This document shows positions 1,495-13,732 of a DNA stretch of 13,732 nucleotides, piece after piece. Location: the NCBI GenBank assembly GCA_016196885.1, contig JACPWU010000030.1:1-13732 (forward strand). Reading direction: 5' to 3'. The translations under genes were made by a program, and so were the position numbers. Under the pieces are notes generated by a model. The model saw nothing but the letters and a program-made list of their open reading frames with translations. It had not been told where the DNA came from and did not search any database. Each line of letters starts with the position of its first letter. Positions within the stretch are counted from its first letter, which is position 1. The stretch comes from Chlamydiota bacterium. Lineage in GTDB: Bacteria > Auribacterota > JACPWU01.

Positions 1495-1704
1495 TTAAGC
1501 CCTAGGATGTGTTCCAATAAAATCTCTCATAAGGCCATATTCCCACATGGTCTCGACGCTGGCGACAGCGGCCCGCAATTCTACCGCAATCAATGGAATG
1601 CCTGCCAGAGAAATAATGATATCGGCGTTAATCACCAGTCCTTTGTCCAAAACCCGATCCAATAAATCTACGAGCGTCGCTCGACCTTGACGTGTGGGTT
1701 CCAT
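1495..1704 (-). CDS. GvpA-family gas vesicle protein (GvpJ/M/S-like minor paralogue)
   Basis: Core TLVDLLDRVLDKGLVINADIIISLAGIPLIAVELRAAVASVET matches the GvpA/J/M fold signature. ATG at 1704 is preceded by GGAGCGGAG-CAACAG. The upstream in-frame ATG at 1722 (75 aa) has no SD and lies in an AT-rich spacer, so the start is 1704 or 1722. Confidence 0.85.
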   Translation of the reverse strand: MEPTRQGRATLVDLLDRVLDKGLVINADIIISLAGIPLIAVELRAAVASVETMWEYGLMRDFIGTHPRA

Positions 1705-1776
1705 CTGTTGCTCCGCTCCCATTTATAATTAAAAATTAAGGAAAAGTTTATTTATTTTTAATTGATTCATTTGCCC

Positions 1777-2547
1777 TCAGGCAAATGAATAGGGTGGCCA
1801 AGGCCCTGTGAAACGAACGTCAAAACCTTGGATTTTCCCGATCTTTTCCAGTTCTCTCCCGAGAAGCACCACTTCGTCTTTCTCTTGCAGGCAGGAGAGA
1901 TTCATGATCATTTGTTTGGGTGGATTCTCTCGTCTGACTTTTTCGACATGGATTTCTTCAACACAATTGCGGATGCGCTGATAAAAATCCTTAAAATAGA
2001 CATTGGCCGCTTCTTCCAGTCGCTTTTTAATGATTTCAGCAAGTTTTCGTTCCAAAAGATAAGCGACCCCTTTGGGTTTGGACTGGATTTCCTTCTCCAG
2101 ATCCTGAATTTCTTTGTCATTGTGTCTAATTTTGGGAAGAACGATCGTAGGATCCCATATCACCTGTACACCATATTCCGCTTTACTTTTTAAACGCATC
2201 AATTTTCCACGAAGCTCTTCAGATTCTCTTTCCATCCAACCTTTAAGATTTTCACCCGCGGTCTTTCCGTCCATTGGCCGAATCACCATTCCAAAACTAA
2301 ATGGAAGAACAGTCTCATAACGCTCCCAGGCAATATCCACCACACTTTGATGAATCAAGAGCCCATCTGCAAGGACCTTTTGATCTTCAGATTGAATGGA
2401 CTTGGCCTCGCATTCCTCAACAACTGCAATCAGGCCTCGATGCAAAAGGGCCATGACAGGTTGTCCCCCAAGACCCCGAAGTTCCAGAGGTTCTTCCTGA
2501 TTCCCTTGGGCGAGACAATAGATATAAAGACCTTTATCGGTCATCAT
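1777..2547 (-). CDS. GvpF/GvpL family gas vesicle protein (paralogue 4)
   Basis: N-terminus GLYIYCLAQG..., LPFSFGMV, and C-terminal FDVRFTGPWPPYSFA are typical of GvpF/L. The track start at 2559 is a TTG that lies inside the RBS. ATG at 2547 follows GGAGGGAAAA. Confidence 0.85.
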   Translation of the reverse strand: MMTDKGLYIYCLAQGNQEEPLELRGLGGQPVMALLHRGLIAVVEECEAKSIQSEDQKVLADGLLIHQSVVDIAWERYETVLPFSFGMVIRPMDGKTAGENLKGWMERESEELRGKLMRLKSKAEYGVQVIWDPTIVLPKIRHNDKEIQDLEKEIQSKPKGVAYLLERKLAEIIKKRLEEAANVYFKDFYQRIRNCVEEIHVEKVRRENPPKQMIMNLSCLQEKDEVVLLGRELEKIGKIQGFDVRFTGPWPPYSFA

Positions 2548-2565
2548 TTTTCCCTCCAAATCAGA

Positions 2566-2635
2566 TCACTGTGCACGGCCCCATGAATGGGCGGCTACAT
2601 AATGGACGACACCTTTGAGTCAAGTGCATATGCCT
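2566..2635 (+). repeat. Composite palindromic repeat, copy 2. Right half only: H2 hairpin plus right terminal IR.
   Basis: GCCCCATGAATGGGCGGCTACA (2578-2599), then AATGGACGACACCTTTG, then AGTCAAGTGCATATGCCT (2618-2635). It fills the gvpK / gvpF-L gap and overlaps the last codons of gvpK. Confidence 0.8.
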
Positions 2636-2958
2636 TTTTCCTTATTCGTTTGGCGAGATGGAGCAATGCCATAAGGATCCGTTAAGCCTTGAACCATTGA
2701 ATCCACCCAATCATCTAATCCTTCCCGAACAGAACGAACAGCCTCCGTGACCCCCTGCTCTTCTTTCAAATGCTCAATCGCCTTATCCAACTCCATGAGG
2801 GTCACTCCAAGCCGATTGATTTCGTCTTCCGTAAGACTTCCCCCTTCCATTCTTTTAAGGGCTTGAATCCTCAAGGTGTCTCGAATCACCTCCACAATGG
2901 CCAAAACCAGGCCGAAGAGACCCTGTTTTAAATCTTTATCGTTCATTTCAAGTTTCAT
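2620..2958 (-). CDS. gvpK: Gas vesicle protein GvpK
   Basis: GLFGLVLAIVEVIRDTLRIQALKRMEGGSLTEDEINRLGVTLMELDKAIEHLKEE matches the conserved GvpK core. ATG start at 2958. The last four codons and the TGA stop lie inside repeat copy 2. Confidence 0.85.
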   Translation of the reverse strand: MKLEMNDKDLKQGLFGLVLAIVEVIRDTLRIQALKRMEGGSLTEDEINRLGVTLMELDKAIEHLKEEQGVTEAVRSVREGLDDWVDSMVQGLTDPYGIAPSRQTNKEKGICT

Positions 2959-2970
2959 GATGAGGTTGAC

Positions 2971-3153
2971 TTACCTCCCTTTCTTTCCAAACCTTCGATT
3001 CATTTCCTCTCGAATTTTTTTTATTCGACCCCCAAATATTTTGCTATTCTGGGCTTTTTGAAAGAAGGAACCAAAACCCGGAATCACCTTGCCAACCTTC
3101 TTCAAAATTTCATCCGCGACATCTTCTTTGTCTTTCTTATTCTCTTCAGACAT
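2971..3153 (-). CDS. Hypothetical small basic protein (60 aa) in the gvp operon
   Basis: ATG at 3153 is preceded by GGAGG with a 5-nt spacer. The track start at 3225 is a TTG whose extension would read through the left arm of repeat copy 3. The product MSEENKKDKEDV...PGFGSFFQK...GKKGR is charged with a Gly/Phe patch. I recognise no family. Confidence 0.5.
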   Translation of the reverse strand: MSEENKKDKEDVADEILKKVGKVIPGFGSFFQKAQNSKIFGGRIKKIREEMNRRFGKKGR

Positions 3154-3187
3154 GAATACCTCCTTTTTCAGCCTATGTGTTCCTATA

Positions 3188-3334
3188 AGGCTATGCAGTT
3201 GACTCAAGTACCTTTGGTCCGTCAAGTGTAGCCGCCCGATTTATCGGGCAAATCCATGCAAGGGGCAAGGCGCATTGCCCCATGAATGGGGCGACTACAA
3301 ATGAACGACATCTTTAAGTCAAGTGCATATGCCT
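3188..3334 (+). repeat. Composite palindromic repeat, copy 3 (full element, 147 bp)
   Basis: Left IR AGGCTATGCAGTTGACT (3188-3204). H1 TGTAGCCGCCCGATTTATCGGGC (3227-3249). Spacer AAATCCATGCAAGGGGCAAGGCGCATT. H2 GCCCCATGAATGGGGCGACTACA (3277-3299). Right IR AGTCAAGTGCATATGCCT (3317-3334). Confidence 0.85.
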
Positions 3335-3356
3335 ATATTCCTAACCTCCGACACTT

Positions 3357-3587
3357 CTATACTTTTTGTTCTGGAACCGGATGAGCTACCCTCATATCCG
3401 AGGGAAAGGCCAAACCCCATTTTGCCGCTGTTTCAAACGAGGCCAAGGCGGCCCGAATCTTAATGGAAAGAAGTTCCACATCGCAAAGTAAAATCACAAT
3501 ATCCGCGTTGATCACAAGCCCCTTATCGAGGATGCGCTCCACCACATCAGCCAATGAGTCTCCCTTTGTCGCGTGAGTGAATGGCAT
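3357..3587 (-). CDS. GvpA-family gas vesicle protein (GvpJ/M/S-like minor paralogue)
   Basis: SLADVVERILDKGLVINADIVILLCDVELLSIKIRAALASFET matches the GvpA-family core. ATG at 3587 immediately follows the TAA of the upstream gene (GAGGAGGCATAAATG), which suggests translational coupling. Confidence 0.85.
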   Translation of the reverse strand: MPFTHATKGDSLADVVERILDKGLVINADIVILLCDVELLSIKIRAALASFETAAKWGLAFPSDMRVAHPVPEQKV

Positions 3588-3839
3588 TTATGCCTCCTCA
3601 GGTCCAAAACCGGTGACATTAAACCCTTCATCCAGCGAAATCACATAACGGTTTTTATCAAAAATGGTCGGGTGACCCAATTTTTTCAGGTACTCGTTTT
3701 CTTCGGTCACTTCAATCGTTCCTTCCCATCCCATATCCGACTTCGCCAATTTCAAAACACGAATGGAGGCCGGATCCTTACCCAGCTCTTCCTGAACGAA
3801 TCCCGTGACCTTTACCTTCGCCTCATGAATATCAGACAT
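3588..3839 (-). CDS. gvpO: GvpO/GvpR-like gas vesicle protein
   Basis: Small acidic protein. MGWEGTIEVTEENEY...RYVISLDEGFNVTGF resembles the GvpO-family core (GW-x-V-x-VEV..., ...Y-x-V-x-LD). RBS AAGGAGGG lies 4 nt upstream of the ATG at 3839. Assigned from memory of the family signature. Confidence 0.6.
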   Translation of the reverse strand: MSDIHEAKVKVTGFVQEELGKDPASIRVLKLAKSDMGWEGTIEVTEENEYLKKLGHPTIFDKNRYVISLDEGFNVTGFGPEEA

Positions 3840-3854
3840 GAAACCCTCCTTCTC

Positions 3855-4112
3855 TTACAATTCTTCATCATTTGACTCTTCCCCCTCTTCTTCGACGGGT
3901 TCCTGACTCCTTTTGTCTATCTCATCCAGAATCCCCAAAATCTCCTTTTCCTTTAAATTATATTCTTCCTCCCCTATTTCACCCATATCCAATTTTGATT
4001 GGAGCAAAAGAAGACGCTCCATCACTTTCTCTCGGCTGCCGTATAATTCATCCTCGGCCATATCCTTAATCTTCTTGCCAAGCCAAATCGCCAAATCATC
4101 AAAGAAAAACAT
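3855..4112 (-). CDS. gvpG: Gas vesicle protein GvpG
   Basis: MFFFDDLAIWLGKKIKDMAEDELY...LLLLQSKLDMGEIGEEEYNLKEKEIL is the typical GvpG pattern (hydrophobic N-terminus, ELY, GEI-x-EEEY), followed by an acidic tail. Confidence 0.85.
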   Translation of the reverse strand: MFFFDDLAIWLGKKIKDMAEDELYGSREKVMERLLLLQSKLDMGEIGEEEYNLKEKEILGILDEIDKRSQEPVEEEGEESNDEEL

Positions 4113-4116
4113 GATT

Positions 4117-4926
4117 TTAAGACCTTTCGATCAGTTCCGCCTTCGACTGGAATTTTCCGCCTTCCTCCTCCAACTGAATGACAATCTCAACAAAGTTAAA
4201 GGGCGGAATAGGGCCCACATACTTAAACTGAATCTGGGAACCGTACCTGCCTTCTAGGTTGTTCACGACCTCATCAAAAGAGGCCTGTTTTTCATCCTCT
4301 ACAAGGAATGCAACATTCATAATATTGACATCCCCCAAAACATTTTGTTTTTTATGTTGAACAGCCCAAGGGGCAAGTTCATGGATCAGCGTTTCAGCCA
4401 TTTGAATGTTCTTCTCCTCCAAGGCCTCTTTCACCACATGCCCCACATCAATCAGAGCGGTGTGCCTTTCCTGTAAAGCCATTTTCATAATCTTCTCTTT
4501 AGCGGCAATCACCTTTTCGTTTTCCTGACTTAATTTTGAGAAAACCTCCTCCAGATTTTTCCACCTCGCCCTGAGGCCCAGCTCACTCTTACCTTGAATC
4601 TTTGCAAAGGTCTCCTGAAACTCCCTCACCTTCTCCTGACGCTTTAAAACCTGACGGACAATCTGATCCTTCGTCTCAGCCAGGGTGCAAAATTTCACGG
4701 GGAGCACCGGCTGAATTTGCATCACCTTTTCATTGACCAACTGATGAGCCATTAAAAAATCACGCGTCAGGTGATATTTCTTCATGGGCTCTTCTGAGAC
4801 CACAGCCGCAAAATCCCCATCGCTTACAACCTCAATCGCACTCGTGCCGTGAATCCCCTGAGCTTCAATCTTCAGAGGCGCTTTATTTTCAATCACGCAA
4901 TAGACCCAAAATCCCATCTTTTCCAT
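4117..4926 (-). CDS. GvpF/GvpL family gas vesicle protein (paralogue 3)
   Basis: MEKMGFWVYCVIEN..., LPVKFCTL, and C-terminal IQFKYVGPIPPFNFV. The track start at 4950 is a GTG. ATG at 4926 is preceded by AAGGAG with an 8-nt spacer. Confidence 0.85.
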   Translation of the reverse strand: MEKMGFWVYCVIENKAPLKIEAQGIHGTSAIEVVSDGDFAAVVSEEPMKKYHLTRDFLMAHQLVNEKVMQIQPVLPVKFCTLAETKDQIVRQVLKRQEKVREFQETFAKIQGKSELGLRARWKNLEEVFSKLSQENEKVIAAKEKIMKMALQERHTALIDVGHVVKEALEEKNIQMAETLIHELAPWAVQHKKQNVLGDVNIMNVAFLVEDEKQASFDEVVNNLEGRYGSQIQFKYVGPIPPFNFVEIVIQLEEEGGKFQSKAELIERS

Positions 4927-4950
4927 AACATCAGCTCCTTCATTAACCAC

Positions 4951-5058
4951 TGCCCCATAAATGAGGCGACTACATCACGATTCACTACCTGCCCCATGAA
5001 TGGGGCGACTACAATGGCCTGCTACTTGTAGTCGCCCGATTTATCGGGCAATCCATGC
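4951..5058 (+). repeat. Composite palindromic repeat, copy 4 (rearranged order H2, H2, H1)
   Basis: GCCCCATAAATGAGGCGACTACA (4952-4974), GCCCCATGAATGGGGCGACTACA (4991-5013), TGTAGTCGCCCGATTTATCGGGC (5027-5049), followed by AATCCATGC as in the other copies. There are no terminal IRs. Confidence 0.8.
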
Positions 5059-5065
5059 TACGCAG

Positions 5066-5812
5066 CTATTCATTCCAATGTAGTTGCAGGGTTACAAAAC
5101 TAAAGGGGGCCATGGGCCCCACCGATTTGACGTCCAGCCTGTCCCCAAATTTCTCAGCCAATTTTTCAGCGGATTGATCAAATTCCTTGAGCCAATCCTT
5201 ATCAATTAAAAAGGCTTCATGGATGACAACCTCATCGGCCCCAGACTCCATCGTTTTAGAGCCCTTTGCCAATTTTTTAAACGGCACGAGATAGCCTTCA
5301 CCCTCTGCCGCCTTTTTTTTCTCCAACGCAGCCGCTACCAGTTCCCCCGCGTGAATGAGGTCTCTTTGAGTTTGAGGGGGTTTAGCGGATTTCAAGTCTC
5401 GAATCTTTCGATTCTCCTGGGCAATTTCTTGATAAATTTTCTTCATGTCTTTCCAACGAACCTTGATGTCCATTTCAACTTTTCCATCCATATCTCTCAA
5501 AAGATCCGTCAACTCCTTCGAATTCCTTTCCAAAAATGAAATAATTTCGTCTGAGGTATCGGCCACCGTGCAGAAACGCATCGGAAGAATATTATATAAC
5601 TCCATCACCTTCTCGATCACCTTCATGTGGGCGGTCATATTTTCTCTGGAAAGGACGTAATGATCCATCGAGGCATTGCTCACCACGGCCGCTAGGCCCT
5701 CAGAACCAAGGGTCATCACCTCGTCCGATTGCCCCCCAATCCCAATGGGGCCAAAATTCTCAGCCCCATTGCTGGAAATAATCCCGTAAATATATTTTCC
5801 CACATGCTTCAT
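5066..5812 (-). CDS. GvpF/GvpL family gas vesicle protein (paralogue 2)
   Basis: MKHVGKYIYGIISSNGAENFGPIG..., LPMRFCTV, and C-terminal LDVKSVGPMAPFSFV. ATG at 5812. Confidence 0.85.
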   Translation of the reverse strand: MKHVGKYIYGIISSNGAENFGPIGIGGQSDEVMTLGSEGLAAVVSNASMDHYVLSRENMTAHMKVIEKVMELYNILPMRFCTVADTSDEIISFLERNSKELTDLLRDMDGKVEMDIKVRWKDMKKIYQEIAQENRKIRDLKSAKPPQTQRDLIHAGELVAAALEKKKAAEGEGYLVPFKKLAKGSKTMESGADEVVIHEAFLIDKDWLKEFDQSAEKLAEKFGDRLDVKSVGPMAPFSFVTLQLHWNE

Positions 5813-5815
5813 AAC

Positions 5816-6820
5816 CTAACCCTTTCCATTGATTTGAAACAAGTCCACCTTCCAGGGCTGACGACCTCCCTGACAGTAATCTAGCAGCAGGTCATACGCC
5901 TCGTGAATTTTTTGGAATTCCTGATCGTCCAATTCGGGATGAATGTCCGGATGGCATTTCCGTGATTTCTCTTTATAGGCGTGTTTCACCGTTTCCAAAT
6001 TTTGATCGCCTTCCAAACCTAACACCTCCTTCGCCCGGCGGATCTCTCGCTCCTCAAATTCCTTGACCAAAATCATAGAAAAACTATAAAGCGGCAGAGG
6101 TCCAATGCAACGAAAATTAAATTTTCCCCCACATATCCGATCCAGATGCTCGACGGTCTTAAAAAACGAATCCTCCTGGCCATTTTTGAGCAAAAAGGAG
6201 GCGTTTAAAACCATGTCGTCATTCATCGTGTCATGTAAGGCGCTCTCTTGACTCACTTTTTTTAAGGAAAACAGAATCTCGTCAGCCCATTGATTCGCAT
6301 AGTCCTTTAATTTTGCCGCTAGGCTCATCCCCAAGGCAATCTTTTCATCCTTTTCTCTCTCAGGCGAAAATGTTTGAATCGCTTTTATCCGACTTTCAAT
6401 TTCTGGATCGCCTTCAGCCATTCCTTTTAGAACCTCCCTGGAATCCCAAGTGACCACGACATCCGTCTCGAAACAATCCTTCATCTTTGAAATCCACTCC
6501 TCAAGACGCCTCTCGTTTTGTAAAAGGACCGCACGTACTTCTTCCTGATCCCTTAAGACAGTCCCAAATTTGCACGGGAGAATAAATTGGCTCTTCATAA
6601 TCATCTCCAGCGTCTCCTGATGCGTTAATAAGGTCTTGACCAATCTTTCTTTGCTCAAAAGTCCGAAATCTTCCTCAGGCGCGGGTCCAATCACGGCGGC
6701 AATATTTCGACTGGGCAGAGCTTCAACCTTTCCCCTTCCAAAGTCCGCTGTTTCAAAACCGATTGCGCCAAAGTCTTTTAACGCGTTCGATTCAACAATC
6801 CCGTAAAGATAAGAACGCAT
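5816..6820 (-). CDS. GvpF/GvpL-family domain fused to a C-terminal DnaJ-type J-domain
   Basis: Residues 1-250 look like GvpF/L (SYLYGIVESNALKDFGAIG, LPCKFGTV, FNFRCIGPLPLYSF). Residues ~258-316 read AKEVLGLEGDQNLETVKHAYKEKSRKCHPDIHPELDDQEFQKIHEAYDLLLDY, a J-domain with HPD encoded at 5945-5953 (CAT CCG GAC on the minus strand). Confidence 0.85.
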   Translation of the reverse strand: MRSYLYGIVESNALKDFGAIGFETADFGRGKVEALPSRNIAAVIGPAPEEDFGLLSKERLVKTLLTHQETLEMIMKSQFILPCKFGTVLRDQEEVRAVLLQNERRLEEWISKMKDCFETDVVVTWDSREVLKGMAEGDPEIESRIKAIQTFSPEREKDEKIALGMSLAAKLKDYANQWADEILFSLKKVSQESALHDTMNDDMVLNASFLLKNGQEDSFFKTVEHLDRICGGKFNFRCIGPLPLYSFSMILVKEFEEREIRRAKEVLGLEGDQNLETVKHAYKEKSRKCHPDIHPELDDQEFQKIHEAYDLLLDYCQGGRQPWKVDLFQINGKG

Positions 6821-6831
6821 ATCTTAACCTC

Positions 6832-9012
6832 TCACTTTTTAGCCTTCCGAGCGATTTGAATCGCCTCTTGGAAATGTTCTTTCCTCACAACAAATTTCTC
6901 CACCAATCCATTGGACTTATCTTGATGCTCTCCAATAAATTCCCTAATCGCCAAGGTCACCGCCTGCCTGCAAAGGGCTGCAATATCGGCCCCGCTGGCC
7001 CCTTCTGTTTCTCGAGCCAGCGCTTCTTTGTCCACCTTTTTTTCGACTGGGGTTCCCTTCAAATGAATCTGAAATATCCCCTCTCGTGCTTTAAGATCCG
7101 GAGGACCCAGCATAATAATATGATCAAATCGGCCCGGCCGGATCAGGGCCGGGTCAATCAAATCCACTCGATTGGTCGCACCCAAGATAATCACGCCTCG
7201 AAGCTCCTCCGTCCCATCTAACTCTGTTAAAAATTGACTAAGGGTCCGACCCATAACCCCGGAATCACCATCGCCTGAGCCCCTTCTCGGAGCCATGGAA
7301 TCCATCTCATCAAAAAATAGAACACAGGGAGCCGCGGACCTTGCCTTTTTAAAAATCTCCCGAACGCCTTTTTCAGTCTCCCCCACATATTTCGAAACCA
7401 ATTCAGGGCCTTTAATCGAAATGAAATTGACCTCGGACTCCGTTGCCAACGCCTTTGCGAGTAAAGTTTTCCCCATTCCTGGAGCACCTATCAGAAGAAC
7501 CCCTTTATTGGGTTTGAGATTTGCCTTCTCGAAAACCTTCGCATAGTGAAGGGGCCACTCTGCTCCCTCGATGAGCAATTTTTTCACAGCTTCAAGTCCC
7601 CCAATATCCGACCAGCGCACATGGGGAGTCTCTAGTGAGACCTCACGAATGGCGGAGGGCTCCACCTCATTCAATGCCTGTGTAAAATGTTCTTGTGTCA
7701 CTTCCAGGGACTCGATCACTTCAAGGGGAAGGTCTTCGATGCGCATTCCTCTTTTTTCCAAAACCTGTCTCAGGCAGCTCATCGCGGCCTCCCTGGCCAA
7801 TGCCTCAACATCAGCCCCCACATAGCCATGGGTGATATCCGCTATCCTCTCCAAACTCACATCTTCGGCCAGGGGCATTCCACGCGTATGGATTTCAAGT
7901 ATTTTAAGCCGTCCATTGCGATCCGGAATTCCAATCGTAATCTCGCGATCAAACCGGCCGGGCCGCCTCAAAGCAGGATCCAAAAGATCCGGCATATTGG
8001 TCGCCCCAATCACAATCAGCTCGCCCCGCGATTTTAATCCATCCAAAAGAGACAAAAGCGTGGCGACAATTCTTTTCTCTACCTCCCCCTGGACATTCGC
8101 CCTCTTGGGGGCCACTGAATCAATTTCATCAATGAAGATAATGGCTGGGGCATGGAGCCTCGCCTCTTCAAAAATGGATCGTAAATGACTTTCGGATTCG
8201 CCGTAAAATTTATGCACGATCTCAGGGCCATTGATCGTGTAGAAATTGGCCTCCGATTCATGAGCCACCGCGCGGGCAATCAAGGTCTTTCCTGTCCCTG
8301 GAGGTCCATAGAGAAGAACCCCCTTCGGGGGATCAATTCCCAATCGCTCAAACACCTCAGGATGTTTAAGGGGCAGTTCCACCATCTCCCGAATTCTCTG
8401 AATCTCCCTGGTCAAGCCACCAATGTCCTCGTAAGAAACACCGGGACGAGTCTTTTCTTCACCCTTTACAGCCTCCCCTTCAATTTTGATTTGCGTTGAA
8501 GATGTGATGAGAAGAGGACCCTCGGGCGAAGTATTCACCACTTCAAAATCTCGAGTCCTCGATCCAAAAAGAGTCGCGCGGACCCGATCCCCTTTAAGGA
8601 CAGGCAACCCCTCCAGGAGACGGCCCACATAAGGATCAGACGAAGGCAGGGCACCTTGTTTTGAGGAACTCAGCGTTGTTTTGAGCCACAAGGTTCTCGC
8701 GGGCTCAGCAGTTGTAGCAAAAACTAAAACCTTCCCATCTAAGCCAATTTTTGCATTTTCGCGAGTGACTCCATCAATCTGAATGTAATGCTTCCCTCGA
8801 TACTCCTCGTAGGTCGGAGCCAGCTTCGCCACCGTCTTATGCTTGCCTTCAATAAATATAATATCCCCGACATGGCAGCCCAATTTTTCCATATCGGACG
8901 GATCCAAGCGGGCAATCCCACGCCCTACATCCCTCACCAAAGCTTCTGCAACACGGAAAGTGAGGGAATCAGACTTAGAATCAGCTTGTTCCTTTTTTAC
9001 AGTACTGGCCAT
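6832..9012 (-). CDS. Cdc48/VAT/p97-type AAA+ ATPase (N domain plus D1 and D2 rings)
   Basis: N domain: RVAEALVRDVGRGIARLDPSDMEKLGCHVGDIIFIEGK. D1: Walker A GPPGTGKT (8284-8307), Walker B IIFIDEID, pore loop KFYGESE, PALRRPGRFDREI. D2: Walker A GAPGMGKT (7465-7488), Walker B VLFFDEMD, pore loop SKYVGETE, PALIRPGRFDHII. RBS GAGGTG lies 5 nt before the ATG at 9012. Confidence 0.92.
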   Translation of the reverse strand: MASTVKKEQADSKSDSLTFRVAEALVRDVGRGIARLDPSDMEKLGCHVGDIIFIEGKHKTVAKLAPTYEEYRGKHYIQIDGVTRENAKIGLDGKVLVFATTAEPARTLWLKTTLSSSKQGALPSSDPYVGRLLEGLPVLKGDRVRATLFGSRTRDFEVVNTSPEGPLLITSSTQIKIEGEAVKGEEKTRPGVSYEDIGGLTREIQRIREMVELPLKHPEVFERLGIDPPKGVLLYGPPGTGKTLIARAVAHESEANFYTINGPEIVHKFYGESESHLRSIFEEARLHAPAIIFIDEIDSVAPKRANVQGEVEKRIVATLLSLLDGLKSRGELIVIGATNMPDLLDPALRRPGRFDREITIGIPDRNGRLKILEIHTRGMPLAEDVSLERIADITHGYVGADVEALAREAAMSCLRQVLEKRGMRIEDLPLEVIESLEVTQEHFTQALNEVEPSAIREVSLETPHVRWSDIGGLEAVKKLLIEGAEWPLHYAKVFEKANLKPNKGVLLIGAPGMGKTLLAKALATESEVNFISIKGPELVSKYVGETEKGVREIFKKARSAAPCVLFFDEMDSMAPRRGSGDGDSGVMGRTLSQFLTELDGTEELRGVIILGATNRVDLIDPALIRPGRFDHIIMLGPPDLKAREGIFQIHLKGTPVEKKVDKEALARETEGASGADIAALCRQAVTLAIREFIGEHQDKSNGLVEKFVVRKEHFQEAIQIARKAKK

Positions 9013-9108
9013 CTTTCACCTCGTTTCCAAAGCCCAATCGTACGCTCGAAACCCCAACACCCAAGGGAACCGCGCAAAAGCCGGGGTTTGGAAAAGAATA
9101 TATTCATT

Positions 9109-9227
9109 AGCATATGTATTTGACTCTAAAGCGTAGCCGCCCGATTCATCGGGCAATCCCCCATGCACGGCCCCATGAATGGGGCGACTACAAATGGACG
9201 ACATTTTTAGGTCAAATACATGAGCCT
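9109..9227 (+). repeat. Composite palindromic repeat, copy 5 (full element, 119 bp)
   Basis: Left IR AGCATATGTATTTGACT (9109-9125). H1 GCGTAGCCGCCCGATTCATCGGGC (9131-9154). H2 GCCCCATGAATGGGGCGACTACA (9170-9192). Right IR AGGTCAAATACATGAGCCT (9209-9227). Confidence 0.85.
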
Positions 9228-9233
9228 GTAGAT

Positions 9234-9788
9234 CTATTTTTCTTTCTTCCTGAGCTTCAACTCCAACATCCCATTTTTATAACTGACTTGGGCACCCGCT
9301 TCCTCCACGGGTGTTTTAAGCAAAATCTCTTTGCTGTACTTACGCTTTCCCGTCGTGGATAAATTCACCACATCCCCATGAATCTCGTAATGAATCTCAC
9401 TCTCGCTTACCCCTGGCAGCTCGGAAACAATTTGCACTGTAGTACTATCCTCAAAAACATCCACAATGGGCTCTCGGGTCTCTTCCACGACCGGACCTTT
9501 GGGGGTTTTTTTAATATTGCCAAAGGCCTCAACGACAGGTTTTGTCTTTCCACCGGCCCCTGCCATGGTCCGAACGGTGAAGCCAAACACCCCTTTCATA
9601 TCCTTCTGGCCAGGCACTGTAAATTCACCCTCCTTTTGAATCACGCCTCCCTCTTCCTTAATCTTGTCAGCAAGTTCAATTAAATTCCCCAATCCTTGAA
9701 ACAACCCGCCAAAAAGGCCCCCCGTCTTAAACTCAAAGGGAAATTTAACCTCTTCACCCGACTCATCCTTTTTCTTTTCTTTTTTCAT
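9234..9788 (-). CDS. Hsp20/alpha-crystallin family small heat-shock protein
   Basis: Alpha-crystallin domain: VDVFEDSTTVQIVSELPGVSESEIHYEIHGDVVNLS...AQVSYKNGMLELKLRKK (the A-x-x-x-NG-x-L-x-x-x-L-x-K signature). N-terminal Lys/Glu-rich and Gly/Phe-rich extension (GGLFGGLFQGLG). The track start at 9797 is a GTG. ATG at 9788 follows GGAGGTGGAGGAT. Confidence 0.85.
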   Translation of the reverse strand: MKKEKKKDESGEEVKFPFEFKTGGLFGGLFQGLGNLIELADKIKEEGGVIQKEGEFTVPGQKDMKGVFGFTVRTMAGAGGKTKPVVEAFGNIKKTPKGPVVEETREPIVDVFEDSTTVQIVSELPGVSESEIHYEIHGDVVNLSTTGKRKYSKEILLKTPVEEAGAQVSYKNGMLELKLRKKEK

Positions 9789-9830
9789 ATCCTCCACCTC
9801 CAGTCTCTCTCTTTCAGTGAATTAAAATTT

Positions 9831-10132
9831 AGGCATACGTACTTGCCCCACGCATCCTCGTAGCGTAGCCGCCCGATTTATCCCCCCACCCAATCCAGCT
9901 GTTATCTTTAGCACGTTCGTAAGCTTATGACCCGTGCATTGATCGCTAAACAATCCCGCCACCTTCGATAGATTGGGTGGGGGGATGAATCGGGCAAATC
10001 CATGCAAGGGGCACGGCCCCATAAATGGGGCGACTACATCCGTCAAGCGTAGTCGCCCGATTTATCGGGCAACATCCATGCACGGCCCCATAAATGGGGC
10101 GACTACAAATGGACTCAGTGCGTAAGCCCATA
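9831..10132 (+). repeat. Composite palindromic repeat, copy 6. Two tandem H1-H2 units inside one pair of degenerate terminal IRs; the first H1 is expanded into a 25-bp-arm hairpin.
   Basis: Left IR AGGCATACGTACTTGCCC (9831-9848). Expanded H1 arms GCCCGATTTATCCCCCCACCCAATC (9871-9895) and GATTGGGTGGGGGGATGAATCGGGC (9971-9995). H2 (10015-10038). H1 GCGTAGTCGCCCGATTTATCGGGC (10047-10070). H2 (10085-10107). Degenerate right IR TCAGTGCGTAAGCC (~10115-10128). Confidence 0.8.
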
Positions 10133-10135
10133 AAA

Positions 10136-10468
10136 TTAATACGCCAGACTCATCTTCTTCACCCGACTGCCACTTTCTCGCAATTCTTTTTGCTCAGCTT
10201 TTTTGTGAGGCCGCCTGCCTGAAAGCTTTCGATACTGACTCTCAGTCCCCCGAATATCCGCTTCAATCCCTTTCATAATCTCCTTGGCTTCGTGCAACTG
10301 ATGCGTCAAGGTGTTGATTTTGCTGAGCAAACTCTGACGCCGGACCGTGAGAATATAAAGCCGATTGACCTGTTGAACCGTTCCGGTATTCTTAAGAGTA
10401 ACGGTCCGGATATCTGAAGAGCCTCGACTGGTTGAAGATCTCCTCAATAATTTCATTTGCACTGGCAC
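10136..10468 (-). CDS. Hypothetical coiled-coil protein directly downstream of gvpN (position of gvpV in Serratia/Anabaena-type clusters)
   Basis: Intact ORF 18 nt downstream of gvpN, with AAGGAGGG upstream. The start is ambiguous: GTG 10468, GTG 10462 or ATG 10456. It has a basic N-terminus and a helical segment LLSKINTLTHQLHEAKEIMKGIEADIRG. The GvpV assignment rests on synteny only, not on recognised sequence. Confidence 0.45.
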   Translation of the reverse strand: MPVQMKLLRRSSTSRGSSDIRTVTLKNTGTVQQVNRLYILTVRRQSLLSKINTLTHQLHEAKEIMKGIEADIRGTESQYRKLSGRRPHKKAEQKELRESGSRVKKMSLAY

Positions 10469-10486
10469 GGCCCTCCTTTTTTTCTT

Positions 10487-11440
10487 TTAAGGGTCTCTTT
10501 TCGGTTTCTTCCCATTCAAACCAAATTGATGAATGGCTCTCTCCACCACTTCCTTGACCTTGGCTGAAGTTGTCTTACTTCCGATTCTCGAAGTTTCTGA
10601 ACAAAGAACATCCAGACAAATCTGTTTAAAAAGAGAATGGTCCGCACCCAGACAAACCCCTTTTCCATAATCCTGAACGGTTTTGGCAATCATGATACAG
10701 CCCCGAATGGTGGGCGCAAATTCATACTGGCCATGCTCCCTCAAATAGCGAACGATCTTCACAATCTTTAAGGCGACTTCCCTGGAAAGTCCTGATCTTC
10801 TTGCAGTAATCGCGCATTCTGTCTCCTCATCAAAGGGCTCCAGATCCAGTGTCACCATCCGATCCCGAAGCGCATCTTGAGAGCGATGAACGCCGGCGTA
10901 TTCCTCCGGATTCGAAGTAAAAATAGCCCGAAAATTGGGATGAACCTTGATACAACTCTCTCCATCGTTTCTACCCCCTCCGGGAAGATCCAGAATTCCC
11001 TCCTGAAGAACCGAAAGAAGAATATTATTGGCCTCAGGCCTTGAACGGGTAAATTCGTCATAAATCAGCGTATAACCATTTTCCACAGCGACCGTCAAAC
11101 GGTTATCCACCCATCGCTTAGAAGAGTCTTCTTCAACCTTCAAAACAGAAGCAATAAAATTATCTCGAAGTTTGCTCACATGATAACCCGTCTGAGCCCC
11201 CACCAATTCGTCTGTGGTCAGTTGTTCATCTCCATGGATCATAATGACGGGCCTTTCTAAGAGCTCGGCAACACGCAGGGCCGATGTCGTTTTCCCTGTC
11301 CCCGAAATCCCTCTAAAATGGACAGGAAAACCCGCATTCAAATAATGGAGGGCCCTCCCTTGAATTCCTTTAACGAAGGGCGTCTCTACAAAATCCGCCC
11401 CCGCCTTCGGTTGTAAAATTGTAATCTCACTGGTTTCCAT
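10487..11440 (-). CDS. gvpN: Gas vesicle AAA+ ATPase GvpN
   Basis: FVETPFVKGIQGRALHYLNAGFPVHFRGISGTGKTT (Walker A encoded at 11288-11311), Walker B TLIYDEFTRS, and FRAIFTSNPEEYAGVHRSQDALRDR. Length (317 aa) and motifs are typical of GvpN. Confidence 0.9.
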   Translation of the reverse strand: METSEITILQPKAGADFVETPFVKGIQGRALHYLNAGFPVHFRGISGTGKTTSALRVAELLERPVIMIHGDEQLTTDELVGAQTGYHVSKLRDNFIASVLKVEEDSSKRWVDNRLTVAVENGYTLIYDEFTRSRPEANNILLSVLQEGILDLPGGGRNDGESCIKVHPNFRAIFTSNPEEYAGVHRSQDALRDRMVTLDLEPFDEETECAITARRSGLSREVALKIVKIVRYLREHGQYEFAPTIRGCIMIAKTVQDYGKGVCLGADHSLFKQICLDVLCSETSRIGSKTTSAKVKEVVERAIHQFGLNGKKPKRDP

Positions 11441-11515
11441 TTTAAACCTTTAGGGGAGATCAGGCCCTCCGACATCGCGTCTGGGGGCGTGATCTTCCGC
11501 GAAATTTTTTGATCC

Positions 11516-11917
11516 TTAATGCTTCTTGGCTGTCTTTGGCGTAGCCTTCTGGGCCATATTTCTCACACTCGTATCGAAGTGCCGCCTCTTCTCGGCCATC
11601 TCCTTTTCAACCTTCTGAAAGGCCTGATGACCCGCTTTGCATTCCTGATGAAACGCCTTGCTCTCCTTATGGAATCCCTGACACAACTTACCCACACTGT
11701 CGGTCAGGTTACCCACGAAAGTTCCTAAATCCGCATGCAACCCTCTTGCCATTGCCTTGCGATCTTTCCTCGTATGATCTAGAAACTTATGGGCATCATT
11801 CGTTATTCGATTAACCTCGGCGACATTATGCCCAAGGAAATTAATACGGTCATTGAACGAAGAGAGGATGCTTCCTCCCAGATTGGCCATACCTGTTGCA
11901 AATCCCGTGAATGCCAT
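11516..11917 (-). CDS. Hypothetical alpha-helical His/Lys-rich protein between the gvpC-position ORF and gvpN
   Basis: AAGGAG lies 9 nt upstream of the ATG at 11917; the ATG at 11926 abuts the SD with no spacer. It contains three consecutive heptads, GFHKESK / AFHQECK / AGHQAFQ. I recognise no family. Confidence 0.5.
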   Translation of the reverse strand: MAFTGFATGMANLGGSILSSFNDRINFLGHNVAEVNRITNDAHKFLDHTRKDRKAMARGLHADLGTFVGNLTDSVGKLCQGFHKESKAFHQECKAGHQAFQKVEKEMAEKRRHFDTSVRNMAQKATPKTAKKH

Positions 11918-11938
11918 GATATTCATCTCCTTTCCTAA

Positions 11939-12562
11939 TCAGGATAAACTTCGTATCCTGTCACCATCTCTTTCCCTGATGTCTTCTCGCCTTCCGCCGG
12001 TACAAGTCAAATATTCATCGGCCAAAGCGGCGGTCTCGAGCCTAAGCTTAGAACCTAAATCATCAAGGGTCTTTTTGAATTCCCTTAAAGTAAGCTCATC
12101 CTTTTTCTGTAAAAGATACTGCATCTTCTCCCCAATCAGGGCTTGTTCTTCTTGAAAACACCTTAAACTAACCCTCGTATCGGCAATGGAACCCTGAATC
12201 CCCTTCTCCAAAGAAGGGACATCTAAAAAGATCCCCTCCTCGACCCCTCTCTTCAACTGAGCCGCCAACTCTTTTTGCCTCTTTAGAAAAGAATGCAAAG
12301 TCAGCCTAATCTCTTTCTCTCTAGCCCGCTGATAAGCTAAAAGAGGCATCGTGAGCACATCAAAATCCTTTTTCCTAAACGACTCAACTTTGGACAATGT
12401 TTCCCTTAAATTTTCCTGAACCATTTGATTGGCAACACGACATTGGTCGAGCATTTCCATACTTTTTTCGATAATCTCCTGTACGGCACAAATGTTCTCA
12501 TCGTAACCCCTGATCGCGTCTGCTGTAATCCTCTTAATCTCCTCCAACTCTGGTGCTCTCAT
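11939..12562 (-). CDS. Hypothetical alpha-helical protein immediately downstream of gvpA (gvpC position)
   Basis: The track start at 12616 is a GTG. ATG at 12562 is preceded by GGAGGAG with a 5-nt spacer (207 aa). The protein is charged and helical, with a weak recurring motif: ESFRKKD (60-66), HSFLKRQ (90-96), REFKKTL (160-166). LTLHSF and LTLREF lie 70 residues apart. Confidence 0.5.
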   Translation of the reverse strand: MRAPELEEIKRITADAIRGYDENICAVQEIIEKSMEMLDQCRVANQMVQENLRETLSKVESFRKKDFDVLTMPLLAYQRAREKEIRLTLHSFLKRQKELAAQLKRGVEEGIFLDVPSLEKGIQGSIADTRVSLRCFQEEQALIGEKMQYLLQKKDELTLREFKKTLDDLGSKLRLETAALADEYLTCTGGRREDIRERDGDRIRSLS

Positions 12563-12665
12563 GAAAACTCCTCCACTTTTCTTTGGAAAAGCTTGGTTTG
12601 GCAAAGTCAAGCTCACCTGAAATCATCCGCTAAACTCGTGTCTGAGGTCGGCTCGACAAACCATT

Positions 12666-12684
12666 TCCCTCGTCTCCCGAGGGA
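12666..12684 (-). terminator. Putative stem-loop attenuator just downstream of gvpA
   Basis: On the sense strand, TCCCTCG-GGAGA-CGAGGGA (7-bp GC-rich stem, 5-nt loop) begins 10 nt after the gvpA stop. It is followed by AAATGGTTTG, so there is no clean U-tract. A partial terminator after gvpA is a common arrangement, but this one is weak. Confidence 0.3.
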
Positions 12685-12694
12685 TTCCTTTTCC

Positions 12695-12910
12695 CTACGC
12701 AGGCTGAGCCGCCGTCTGTGTAAGACCGATCGCTTCAGCATACTTAAGATAGGTCTCGACACCCGCGCATACGACACGGGCTTCCACGCTCAGGAACTCA
12801 ATTCCCACCAACGAGACCCTGGCCCATGCATCGATCACGATTCCCTTATCCAGAATCCGATCGACAACCTCTGCTAATGAAGAACTCGCCATTGATTTTT
12901 GAACTGCCAT
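12695..12910 (-). CDS. gvpA: Major gas vesicle structural protein GvpA
   Basis: [71 protein letters not shown] is nearly canonical GvpA over its whole 71-aa length. ATG at 12910 is preceded by AAGGAAGGTG. The track start at 12958 is a TTG extension that would overlap the predicted transcription start. Confidence 0.95.
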
Positions 12911-12961
12911 TTGACACCTTCCTTTCTTCTTTTGACCTCTTCCAAGCGTCGGAAGCAATAA

Positions 12962-12977
12962 AGCAATATGCGTACCA
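12962..12977 (-). promoter_or_regulatory. Sigma-54 (RpoN) -24/-12 promoter upstream of gvpA
   Basis: The minus strand reads TGGTACG-CATA-TTGCT against the consensus TGGCACG-N4-TTGCW, matching 11 of 12 specified positions with exact GG/GC spacing. The GC of the -12 element is 53 nt upstream of the gvpA ATG, which implies a leader of about 40 nt. Confidence 0.6.
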
Positions 12978-13043
12978 AAAATTTAGATGTCATCGCAAAG
13001 GCACTAAGCACGTGATGATCTCACTATGGCAATAGTAAACAAC

Positions 13044-13162
13044 AGGCATATGCACTTGACTTTTTGTAGTCGCCCGATTTATCGGGCTATCAACGGATTG
13101 CCCCATGAATGGGGCGACTACACTTCACGGATCAAGGTACTTAAAGTCAAGTGCATGTGCCT
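13044..13162 (+). repeat. Composite palindromic repeat, copy 7 (full element, 119 bp; the cleanest copy)
   Basis: Left IR AGGCATATGCACTTGACT (13044-13061). H1 TGTAGTCGCCCGATTTATCGGGC (13065-13087). Spacer TATCAACGGATT. H2 GCCCCATGAATGGGGCGACTACA (13100-13122). Right IR AGTCAAGTGCATGTGCCT (13145-13162). Confidence 0.9.
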
Positions 13163-13300
13163 TATAAGCAAAACAGGGTTTTCAGAGATTTTAGAACTGG
13201 AAAAATCGGCAAAGGATTCCCTCATTCAGGAATTAAATCCTGATTTCTGGGTATAAAAGCGTAGGGGTATTTTGTGGGTTTAGTTCACGCGGGATTTAGA

Positions 13301-13732
13301 TTATTGTTGACCCTCCCACATGACTTTAAGCAGAAAGATCGTATCTTTTCTCAAATTGGCTTTAGCCCACACCTTCTGTTTTTCATCCAGCAGTTCACCC
13401 ATGCCGGAGAGGATGTGCCTGTCCCCCATTTTTTCCAAAAGGTCGATACATTTCTGCAAAAAATTCTTGAATGACATGCCAACTCTGGTTTCGACAATCC
13501 CTTTGTTGATGGGCCAATTTTTCTCCAAAAAATGCCAAGTGTCATAAATGTCGCGATTCGTTTTACCCATTCGTTCAACCATCGCCACCAGCTTGTGCGC
13601 CACCATGTCCTCCCGTGTCATAACCTTCATGGAAATACCCAGATAGGCCTTCACTTCATACCTTGATCCGAATTCCCTTCGGTTGATTTCCACCTTGATA
13701 TTCTGAGCACCCAGGACTTTATTATCATAGGA
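13301..13732 (-). CDS. AbiEii/AbiGii-family nucleotidyltransferase toxin, C-terminal part (5' end lies beyond the window)
   Basis: The frame stays open to the window edge: ...SYDNKVLGAQNIKVEINRREFGS.... EDMVAHKLVAMVERMGKTNRDIYDTWHFL resembles the conserved AbiEii (type IV TA nucleotidyltransferase) region. The M at 13693 in the track is an internal GTG (Val). Confidence 0.55.
   Translation of the reverse strand, partial: SYDNKVLGAQNIKVEINRREFGSRYEVKAYLGISMKVMTREDMVAHKLVAMVERMGKTNRDIYDTWHFLEKNWPINKGIVETRVGMSFKNFLQKCIDLLEKMGDRHILSGMGELLDEKQKVWAKANLRKDTIFLLKVMWEGQQ

Follow-up and report, generated by a model that had tools for sequence, protein, structure and literature searches.

A Cdc48-type unfoldase gene as a recurrent accessory of bacterial gas-vesicle clusters

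The stretch of DNA considered here, contig JACPWU010000030.1 of a bacterium labeled Chlamydiota (13,732 nt, hereafter the window), is a 13.7-kb piece that, according to Pfam and NCBIfam, consists of one minus-strand gas-vesicle (gvp) cluster, save for a partial AbiEii toxin gene and waaA. Among the gvp genes stands cdc48, which encodes a double-ring ATPase of the CDC48/VAT family. As a protein it is unremarkable within its known family; the novelty lies in its context, an apparently gvp-dedicated module of a small heat-shock protein (sHsp) and Cdc48 that is widespread in bacteria and whose adjacency is plainly visible in RefSeq annotation. Cdc48 is an integral, co-inherited accessory in a widespread class of gvp clusters. 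The best explanation for its presence, to which we assign a probability of about one half, is a captured archaeal-type holdase-unfoldase module that would keep GvpA-family proteins assembly-competent.

A double-ring ATPase among gas-vesicle genes

Read along the minus strand, the cluster opens with gvpA, orf225, orf136, gvpN, orf110, the Hsp20-like gene, cdc48, and a gvpF/L gene with a J domain, and it continues with gvpF, gvpF, gvpG, orf83, a gvpJ-like gene, orf84, gvpK, gvpL/F, and a third gvpA-family gene. The features on which the argument depends are the following (protein lengths and positions in amino acids, aa).

6832..9012, minus strand: CDC48/VAT-family double-ring AAA+ ATPase gene, 726 aa plus TGA (open reading frame (ORF), Pfam, TIGR01243, VAT homology, dN/dS)
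8464..8958, minus strand: Cdc48 N domain, aa 19-183, double-psi barrel CDC48_N plus CDC48_2 (Pfam PF02359, PF02933)
7633..8439, minus strand: D1 ATPase ring module, aa 192-460 (Pfam, VAT alignment, motifs)
6835..7632, minus strand: D2 ATPase ring module and C-terminal tail, aa 461-726 (Pfam, VAT alignment, motifs)
9234..9797, minus strand: Hsp20/alpha-crystallin-like (GvpH-like) sHsp gene directly upstream of cdc48 (NCBIfam, Pfam)
9123..9230, no strand: palindromic repeat resembling repetitive extragenic palindromes (REP-like) inside the hsp20-cdc48 spacer (repeat families D1-D3; inverted pairs I1, I3, I7)
5816..6820, minus strand: GvpF/L with a C-terminal J domain carrying HPD (Pfam GvpL_GvpF, E 3.7e-48; DnaJ, 39.9 bits)
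10487..11440, minus strand: gvpN, MoxR-type gas-vesicle AAA+ ATPase (TIGR02640, 318.8 bits; cut-off 266.8)
12695..12910, minus strand: gvpA, major shell protein, 71 aa from ATG (Pfam Gas_vesicle, E 2.7e-15; same-length call in the contig record)

The cdc48 frame starts with the ATG at 9010-9012, preceded by a Shine-Dalgarno-like GAGGTGA, and ends with the TGA at 6832-6834. Pfam places CDC48_N (PF02359) at aa 19-97 (E 1.2e-22; 80.4 bits versus a cut-off of 35.1) and CDC48_2 (PF02933) at aa 126-183 (E 9e-12; 44.9 bits versus 22.4), together with two AAA (PF00004) stretches (E 3.9e-91) and two AAA_lid_3 stretches. The NCBIfam model TIGR01243, "CDC48 family AAA ATPase", covers aa 18-719 with 901.5 bits, above its cut-off of 802.65. 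The best solved relative is VAT from Thermoplasma (5g4f, E 2.4e-210), in which residues 5-690 align with residues 15-692 of the query; plant and human Cdc48/p97 come next. The original prediction, made from the letters of this DNA, of a 726-aa Cdc48-type ORF with an N domain and two complete AAA+ modules is borne out by these matches.

Both rings carry their catalytic motifs. D1 has a Walker A GPPGTGKT (236-243), a Walker B IIFIDEID (291-298), and an arginine-finger region ALRRPGRFDR (347-356), whereas the corresponding strings in D2 are GAPGMGKT (509-516), VLFFDEMD (564-571), and ALIRPGRFDH (622-631); in the alignment, the sensor-1 Asn, the Walker A and B motifs, and the arginine-finger regions are conserved in both. 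The pore loops are aromatic in D1 (VHKFYGESE, 266-274) and in D2 (VSKYVGETE, 539-547), as had been proposed (KFYGESE and KYVGETE). The gene is also constrained: compared with a 91%-identical orthologue in a sister metagenome-assembled genome (MAG), the ratio of nonsynonymous to synonymous substitution rates (dN/dS) is 0.106 over 725 codons, which indicates purifying selection. On these grounds the gene product is probably a functional, hexamer-type Cdc48/VAT unfoldase, with ring assembly and ATP-dependent unfolding predicted from its homology to VAT structures.

The resemblance to VAT and archaeal Cdc48 extends to the N-D1-D2 architecture, the nearly end-to-end alignment, and the catalytic motifs of both rings, and even the pore loops are close (KYYGQSE and KWVGESE in VAT, KFYGESE and KYVGETE here). 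What sets the window protein apart is its bacterial host, its place inside a gvp operon, and a set of clade-specific signatures. The C-terminus, ...QEAIQIARKAKK (...IQIARKAKK), has no HbYX (hydrophobic-Tyr-X) ending, in agreement with the original prediction. The accompanying idea of a stand-alone, non-proteasomal enzyme is strengthened by the survey described below, where that ending is found in 0 of 57 gvp-linked bacterial Cdc48 proteins versus 5 of 18 ordinary archaeal ones. Another bacterial relative, Cpa, is an actinobacterial double-ring protein for which an interaction with the 20S proteasome has been reported and which is restricted to Actinobacteria. The present clade, in contrast, spans many phyla, lacks HbYX, and is linked to gvp genes, a distinction drawn from descriptions.

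Cdc48 occurs in addition to GvpN, as had been claimed and as the TIGR02640 match in the window establishes. GvpN is also an ATPase encoded in gvp clusters, but it is a single-ring protein of the AAA_5/MoxR type with 317 aa, no Cdc48 N domain, and no match to the classic AAA family (PF00004). It is also nearly universal in gvp clusters and needed for vesicle enlargement (PMC9501494, PMC11445434), whereas Cdc48 is found in a subset of them. Since GvpN is retained beside it, Cdc48 adds to GvpN and does not replace it.

Cdc48 had further been described as tightly packed between its neighbors. This holds downstream, where the GvpF/L-J gene begins 11 nt past the cdc48 stop, but not upstream, where a spacer of 221 nt, partly filled by the repeat, separates cdc48 from hsp20. 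In three relatives on long contigs, the hsp20, cdc48, and gvpFL-J genes touch or overlap. The J domain of GvpF/L (PF00226, aa 265-314) scores 39.9 bits over a cut-off of 27.8, and its HPD lies within ...KCHPDIHPE....

Recurrence, co-inheritance, and origin

How general is this arrangement? To answer this, an alignment of 18 bacterial Cdc48 proteins served to search GTDB at the level of one genome for each species, and gvp genes were sought by searching six-frame ORFs in flanks of at most 10 kb with the Gvp proteins of the window (phmmer). The figures rest on the best 80 of 598 confirmed candidate stretches, the scan having been seeded with patterns from the clade of the query. Within this sample, 54 of the 63 bacterial loci have two or more kinds of core gvp genes no farther than 10 kb from cdc48, and 56 of the 63 have one or more. 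Seven loci have no gvp gene; three of these are on contigs below 6 kb, four on contigs below 10 kb. An Hsp20/GvpH-like gene is found directly upstream of cdc48, on the same strand, at 44 of the 63 bacterial loci. Among the 56 gvp-linked ones, 24 (the window locus included) have a J domain on GvpF/L, and GvpN was found in 42, many of the remaining loci being truncated.

The whole gene order is repeated in MAGs assigned to Deltaproteobacteria (69% identity), Eisenbacteria (68%), and Gammaproteobacteria (65%). The hosts of the surveyed loci are diverse: they include Chlorobiaceae, Thiodictyon, Thiocapsa, Crenothrix, Desulfobacterota, Planctomycetota, and Bacteroidota, as well as Chloroflexota, Actinomycetota, Patescibacteria, Saganbacteria, Zixibacteria, and Atribacterota. 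Cultured isolates represented in the survey include Desulfosporosinus sp. SRJS8 and Methylobacter psychrophilus Z-0021. The locus of the latter is gvp-linked, and we take this strain to be the psychrophilic tundra methanotroph for which a review records gas vesicles. On the complete plasmid p1 of Methylocella tundrae T4, annotated by the Prokaryotic Genome Annotation Pipeline (PGAP), a gene for a "CDC48 family AAA ATPase" stands at the end of the gvp cluster, after genes for an "Hsp20/alpha crystallin family protein" and a hypothetical protein; a plasmid of Methylosinus sp. C49 shows a similar linkage. The neighborhood survey of bacterial Cdc48 homologues thus reveals a linkage to gvp genes that recurs in many phyla and in cultured bacteria too. 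A second unfoldase beside GvpN had been called unexpected, and so it is relative to the literature and to model systems; in genomes it is not, since this type of cluster is common and conserved there.

The evolutionary distances tell a consistent story. Pairwise distances of Cdc48 and GvpN co-vary (Mantel r 0.78, 45 loci, a value that 0 of 2000 permutations reach), and phyla are intermixed in the neighbor-joining tree of Cdc48, from which it follows that the two genes move together, largely via horizontal transfer of the cluster. The gvp-linked proteins also share signature residues, namely Q78, which is R in ordinary archaeal Cdc48, and position 634. A further difference between the clades is found in D1, where "ATN[IML]" stands against "ATNR", and the D1 arginine-finger string ALRRPGRFDR is identical in 57 of 57 gvp-linked bacterial proteins.

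As for the source of the module, the archaeal loci are informative. Two of 20 are gvp-linked, those of Methanoperedens (survey locus L040, 737-12215) and Methanolobus (L050, 2559-12091); both are gvp clusters with cdc48 at the edge and at least one Hsp20 gene inside, and their Cdc48 proteins have Q at position 78 and E at 634, the signature residues that also mark their gvp-linked counterparts in bacteria. This hints that gvp-linked Cdc48 may have had a single origin, possibly in archaea. At 10 of the 20 archaeal loci, Hsp20 adjoins Cdc48 without gvp genes, five times upstream and five times downstream (L028, L052, L056, L060, L064, L068, L070, L076, L079, L083). Archaeal Hsp20 and Cdc48 are under the control of the heat-shock regulators Phr and HSR1 (PMC5852551); the adjacency fits this regulon and suggests an ancestral two-gene module. 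This archaeal adjacency of Hsp20 and Cdc48, together with their shared heat-shock control, is the reason for reading the module of the window as captured.

The pair of the window is like the archaeal one in that an sHsp-like gene is coupled with a Cdc48 gene. It differs in sitting among bacterial gvp assembly genes, and its presumed clients are the shell proteins of one organelle instead of a heat-damaged proteome. No Phr/HSR1-type regulator was identified in the window.

On megaplasmids of Halobacterium salinarum and Natrinema (NC_002608.1, NZ_CP038632.1, CP031304.1), a cdc48 paralogue lies about 27-30 kb from gvpN and not adjacent to it; this distant co-occurrence is probably coincidental.

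Candidate roles for the unfoldase

What, then, could a Cdc48-type motor do for a gas vesicle? The clients would be the very hydrophobic, aggregation-prone shell proteins of the GvpA family (GvpA, GvpJ, GvpM/S-like), GvpA being the presumed ultimate client. These proteins aggregate without chaperones, and GvpF binds GvpA (PMC9501494, PMC11445434); aggregation of GvpA2 is proteotoxic in Escherichia coli (PMC12848028). In the preferred reading, the Hsp20/GvpH-like protein encoded upstream would hold non-native or aggregated subunits, and Cdc48, acting as a stand-alone double-ring motor without a proteasome partner, would extract and unfold these sHsp-held subunits. Its N domain would engage the clients, and the aromatic pore loops of D1 and D2 would thread the polypeptide, driven by ATP hydrolysis. 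The GvpF/L protein encoded downstream, a member of a family known as GvpA-binding chaperones or nucleators, might then take over the subunits and pass them on for productive insertion. Its J domain, where present, could recruit DnaK/Hsp70, while GvpN would drive vesicle growth. The net result would be a private line of holdase, unfoldase, and Hsp70 recruiter, built from an archaeal Hsp20-Cdc48 heat-shock pair that the gvp cluster captured. A broader formulation, which we offer tentatively, treats the GvpH-like sHsp, Cdc48, and GvpF/L with or without its J domain as a horizontally mobile, ATP-driven shell-protein machine that may thread aggregates, and possibly collapsed shells, back to assembly.

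Such a line recalls the disaggregation system of sHsp, DnaK-DnaJ, and ClpB (Hsp104), with its sHsp holdase, Hsp70-recruiting J domain, and double ring with aromatic pores; the parallel is a functional analogy only. The motor of the window is of the Cdc48 type and lacks the M domain with which ClpB docks Hsp70, and its J domain is fused to the client-specific GvpF/L.

Several points weigh against this proposal. For any gvp-linked Cdc48, the identity of the client is deduced from gene neighborhood alone. In the window, a repeat-bearing spacer of 221 nt parts hsp20 from cdc48, and co-transcription of the two is putative. Because the search was seeded from the clade of the query and only the best 80 of 598 candidates were analyzed, the linkage rate of 86% describes the closest relatives and not all bacterial Cdc48; a Cdc48 protein encoded on a Sinorhizobium replicon, 47.5% identical, is not gvp-linked. 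Conversely, the gvp cluster on a plasmid of Octadecabacter arcticus has no Cdc48, though it keeps Hsp20, that of Spartinivicinus ruber has no annotated Cdc48 or Hsp20, and there is no Cdc48 in the reviewed model gvp systems (PMC9501494). The J-domain fusion occurs in under half of the linked loci, so that a hand-off to Hsp70 cannot be general. Finally, the neighbor-joining tree of Cdc48 comes without support values. In a small independent sample of plasmid gvp clusters, Cdc48 was present in two of four bacterial genera inspected, a Nostoc cluster not being among them. Missing as it is from some gvp clusters, Cdc48 cannot be a core assembly factor; it is a frequent accessory of these clusters and not a core Gvp.

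A different view of the same machinery follows the original prediction of lattice extraction: Cdc48 would pull GvpA out of the very stable shells, assembled or collapsed, for clearance, reuse, or lower buoyancy. A threading unfoldase without a protease-docking tail has a suitable architecture for this task, the tight linkage to gvp genes fits it equally well, and a maintenance role agrees with Cdc48 being accessory instead of core. Pressure collapse and the adjustment of buoyancy matter in stratified waters, and many of the hosts are plankton of such waters (Chlorobiaceae, Thiodictyon, Thiocapsa, methanotrophs). Sequence data do not separate this possibility from quality control at the time of assembly. 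However, the partners, a holdase-type sHsp and a GvpA-binding GvpF/L-J, are classic for non-native monomers and aggregates and not for an ordered lattice. Moreover, cdc48 lies amid assembly genes, often overlapping them, which implies expression during assembly. Taken together, the sHsp and J-domain partners and the archaeal heat-shock pairing speak for quality control of un- or misassembled GvpA-family subunits at the assembly stage no less than for lattice extraction, and we regard the latter as a rather unlikely, if serious, alternative.

Could the substrate be something other than a shell protein? Cdc48 might control how much of some Gvp regulator or accessory protein is present, or in what stoichiometry. 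There is a precedent in GvpD, a haloarchaeal nucleoside triphosphatase (NTPase) and negative regulator encoded in the gvp cluster, which causes loss of the activator GvpE (PMC9501494), and a balanced Gvp stoichiometry is known to matter (PMC9501494, PMC12848028). Sigma-54 activators and PAS histidine kinases do flank Cdc48-type clusters at three survey loci (L002, L055, L087), yet regulators are not conserved beside Cdc48, and none is encoded in the window; the partner that is kept is the sHsp. With neither a partner protease nor a docking motif, regulatory remodeling of this kind is improbable.

We hold it to be just as improbable that Hsp20 and Cdc48 form a general proteostasis cassette that merely travels with the gvp island and has no gvp-specific role. 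The pair does occur without gvp genes at the ten archaeal loci named above and is heat-shock regulated in archaea; likewise, some bacterial Cdc48 genes are unlinked to gvp, and seven surveyed loci showed no gvp genes in the stretch sampled, although their contigs are short. After transfer, however, one would expect a generic cassette to disappear or to move elsewhere, whereas the position between hsp20 and gvpF/L is kept across many phyla, often with overlapping stop and start codons. The divergence of Cdc48 tracks that of GvpN, and the shared signatures (Q78, position 634) extend to both gvp-linked archaeal proteins.

An anti-phage defense ATPase of the IetA/IteA type beside the AbiEii fragment (13301-13693), suggested by PADLOC IetA models that match each AAA ring (E 2e-77), can be dismissed: the NCBIfam IteA model NF042959 scores 232.1 bits, far under its cut-off of 510, while the full-length CDC48 match exceeds that of its family, the ring matches reflect generic AAA similarity to a single-ring protein, no IetS-type protease partner is found among the neighbors in the window, and AbiEii lies outside the gvp genes, six genes from cdc48.

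The wider cluster and its significance

The sHsp-like protein of the window is closest to the NCBIfam model of archaeal Hsp20 (NF041800, E 4.8e-35), although its 120.6 bits remain below the equivalog cut-off of 140, and its match to Pfam HSP20 is weak (E 0.007; 16.9 bits versus a cut-off of 20.8). Its positional orthologue in Methylobacter psychrophilus (L055, 9472-9990) exceeds the thresholds of three families: Pfam HSP20 with 31.6 bits, GvpH with 31.6 bits (cut-off 22), and ArsA_HSP20 with 26.8 (cut-off 22.5). An sHsp-like element thus appears to link haloarchaeal GvpH, the ArsA-type gvp ATPases, and the Cdc48-type clusters. ArsA homologues are known as a second ATPase, together with hsp20, in gvp clusters of Chlorobi, Bacteroidetes, Geobacter, and cyanobacteria (PMC2963123, Castillo and Saier 2010). 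Those ArsA/Get3-like clusters are similar to the present one in that an extra ATPase other than GvpN accompanies hsp20, and the Methylobacter match to ArsA_HSP20 adds to the likeness. Nevertheless, ArsA is a dimeric P-loop protein, unrelated in fold and mechanism to a hexameric threading AAA+ protein such as Cdc48, and no ArsA homologue is found in the window by Pfam or NCBIfam.

The remaining genes of the window are listed here.

13301-13693: AbiEii fragment (type IV toxin-antitoxin nucleotidyltransferase), truncated, just upstream of gvpA
11939-12616, minus strand: orf225, without a Pfam or NCBIfam family
11516-11926, minus strand: orf136, without a Pfam or NCBIfam family
10136-10468, minus strand: orf110, without a Pfam or NCBIfam family
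5066-5812, minus strand: gvpF (Pfam)
4117-4950, minus strand: gvpF (Pfam)
3855-4112, minus strand: gvpG (Pfam)
3588-3839, minus strand: orf83, without a Pfam or NCBIfam family
3357-3587, minus strand: gvpJ-like (Pfam)
2971-3225, minus strand: orf84, without a Pfam or NCBIfam family
2620-2958, minus strand: gvpK (Pfam)
1777-2559, minus strand: gvpL/F (Pfam)
1495-1722, minus strand: gvpA-family gene (Pfam)
142-1479: waaA

The downstream gvp genes (1495..5812) keep an identical order at four survey loci (L001, L002, L006, L085). Of the five ORFs without a family, orf225, orf136, and orf110 flank gvpN. The ORFs of 225, 136, 110, 83, and 84 aa all have positional counterparts in many Cdc48-type gvp clusters (phmmer), and they probably encode Gvp proteins specific to this type of cluster, for example with GvpC- or GvpO-like roles.

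Nearly every intergenic gap of the gvp cluster holds the REP-like palindromic repeat, in oppositely oriented pairs (8-85, 2573-2638, 3218-3337, 4937-5057, 9123-9230, 9855-10145, 13056-13163). Its core is approximately TTGTAGTCGCCCCATTTATGGGGC, with the reverse form GCCCGATAAATCGGGCGACTACAA, and the ORFs that it creates, with peptides like "SRPIYGA" and "GPINGATT", are spurious. The repeat might act on the processing or stability of mRNA, or else be a miniature repeat spread over the whole genome in this lineage; Rfam gives no match across the whole window, the intergenic repeats included. A scan for promoter-like sites found 17 versus 15.6 expected and one for terminator-like sites 23 versus 15.5, which is about background level, so that the transcription units are not defined by it.

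Several other gvp clusters of the Cdc48 type are bordered by genes for sigma-54-dependent response regulators and for PAS histidine kinases (L055 8060-9475 and 13596-15044; L002 4618-6045; L087 1284-2681 and 3546-5427). In Methylobacter, the activator gene overlaps the start of hsp20, and the flanking regulators resemble GvrA/B/C. No such regulator genes lie within the window.

The comparison with the sister MAG (L085) concerns the island as a whole. The gvp island and AbiEii (1495-13693, compared with L085 5238-18724) are 77-99% identical at the protein level (AbiEii 96%, Cdc48 91%), whereas identity falls to 63% in the immediately flanking WaaA (142-1479). So abrupt a change where the gvp genes give way to waaA suggests that related lineages recently exchanged or recombined the island. 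The position of the AbiEii fragment is kept in the sister MAG, and on the sister contig (L085 1-5627, 17447-22178) the gvp cluster lies beside lipopolysaccharide (LPS) genes (waaA, lpxK), cheR, and a PAS histidine kinase gene. A full gvp cluster is an uncommon find in MAGs labeled Chlamydiae/Chlamydiota, a phylum best known for obligate intracellular life, and the label rests on binning. The closest named matches of WaaA are from Chlamydiae/Chlamydiota MAGs (63%, 46%, 38%), followed by mixed phyla at about 40%, which neither confirms nor refutes the bin label.

As regards the literature, no description of the Cdc48-gvp linkage, and no experiment on a gvp-linked Cdc48, was found in openly searchable full text, subscription journals being outside this coverage and an earlier mention therefore possible; the nearest precedent there was the paper on ArsA and hsp20. 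Genome papers that list Gvp proteins (Desulfosporosinus, Thiodictyon, Chloroflexota), among them papers on organisms with clusters of this type, do not mention Cdc48. To our knowledge, no role is known for bacterial Cdc48 homologues outside Actinobacteria. The conserved gvp context now offers bacterial Cdc48 a candidate client, an amyloid-like shell protein; if true, Cdc48 would for the first time have a defined physiological client in bacteria other than those of that phylum.

Gas vesicles serve as acoustic reporter genes. Current models see GvpN as the sole energy source and GvpF/G as passive chaperones (PMC9501494, PMC11445434), and a screen of clusters for reporter genes, which minimized "non-gvp genes", saw 10 of 15 clusters fail in Escherichia coli (PMC10344784). 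An unfoldase and an sHsp, often with a J domain, in a broad class of clusters would add an ATP-driven quality-control arm to these models. If the proposed role is correct, the trio of sHsp, Cdc48, and GvpF/L would be an accessory module so far missing from the picture. This would go some way toward accounting for the failure or toxicity of many gvp clusters in heterologous hosts, and co-expression of the module would be a concrete option for gas-vesicle biotechnology.

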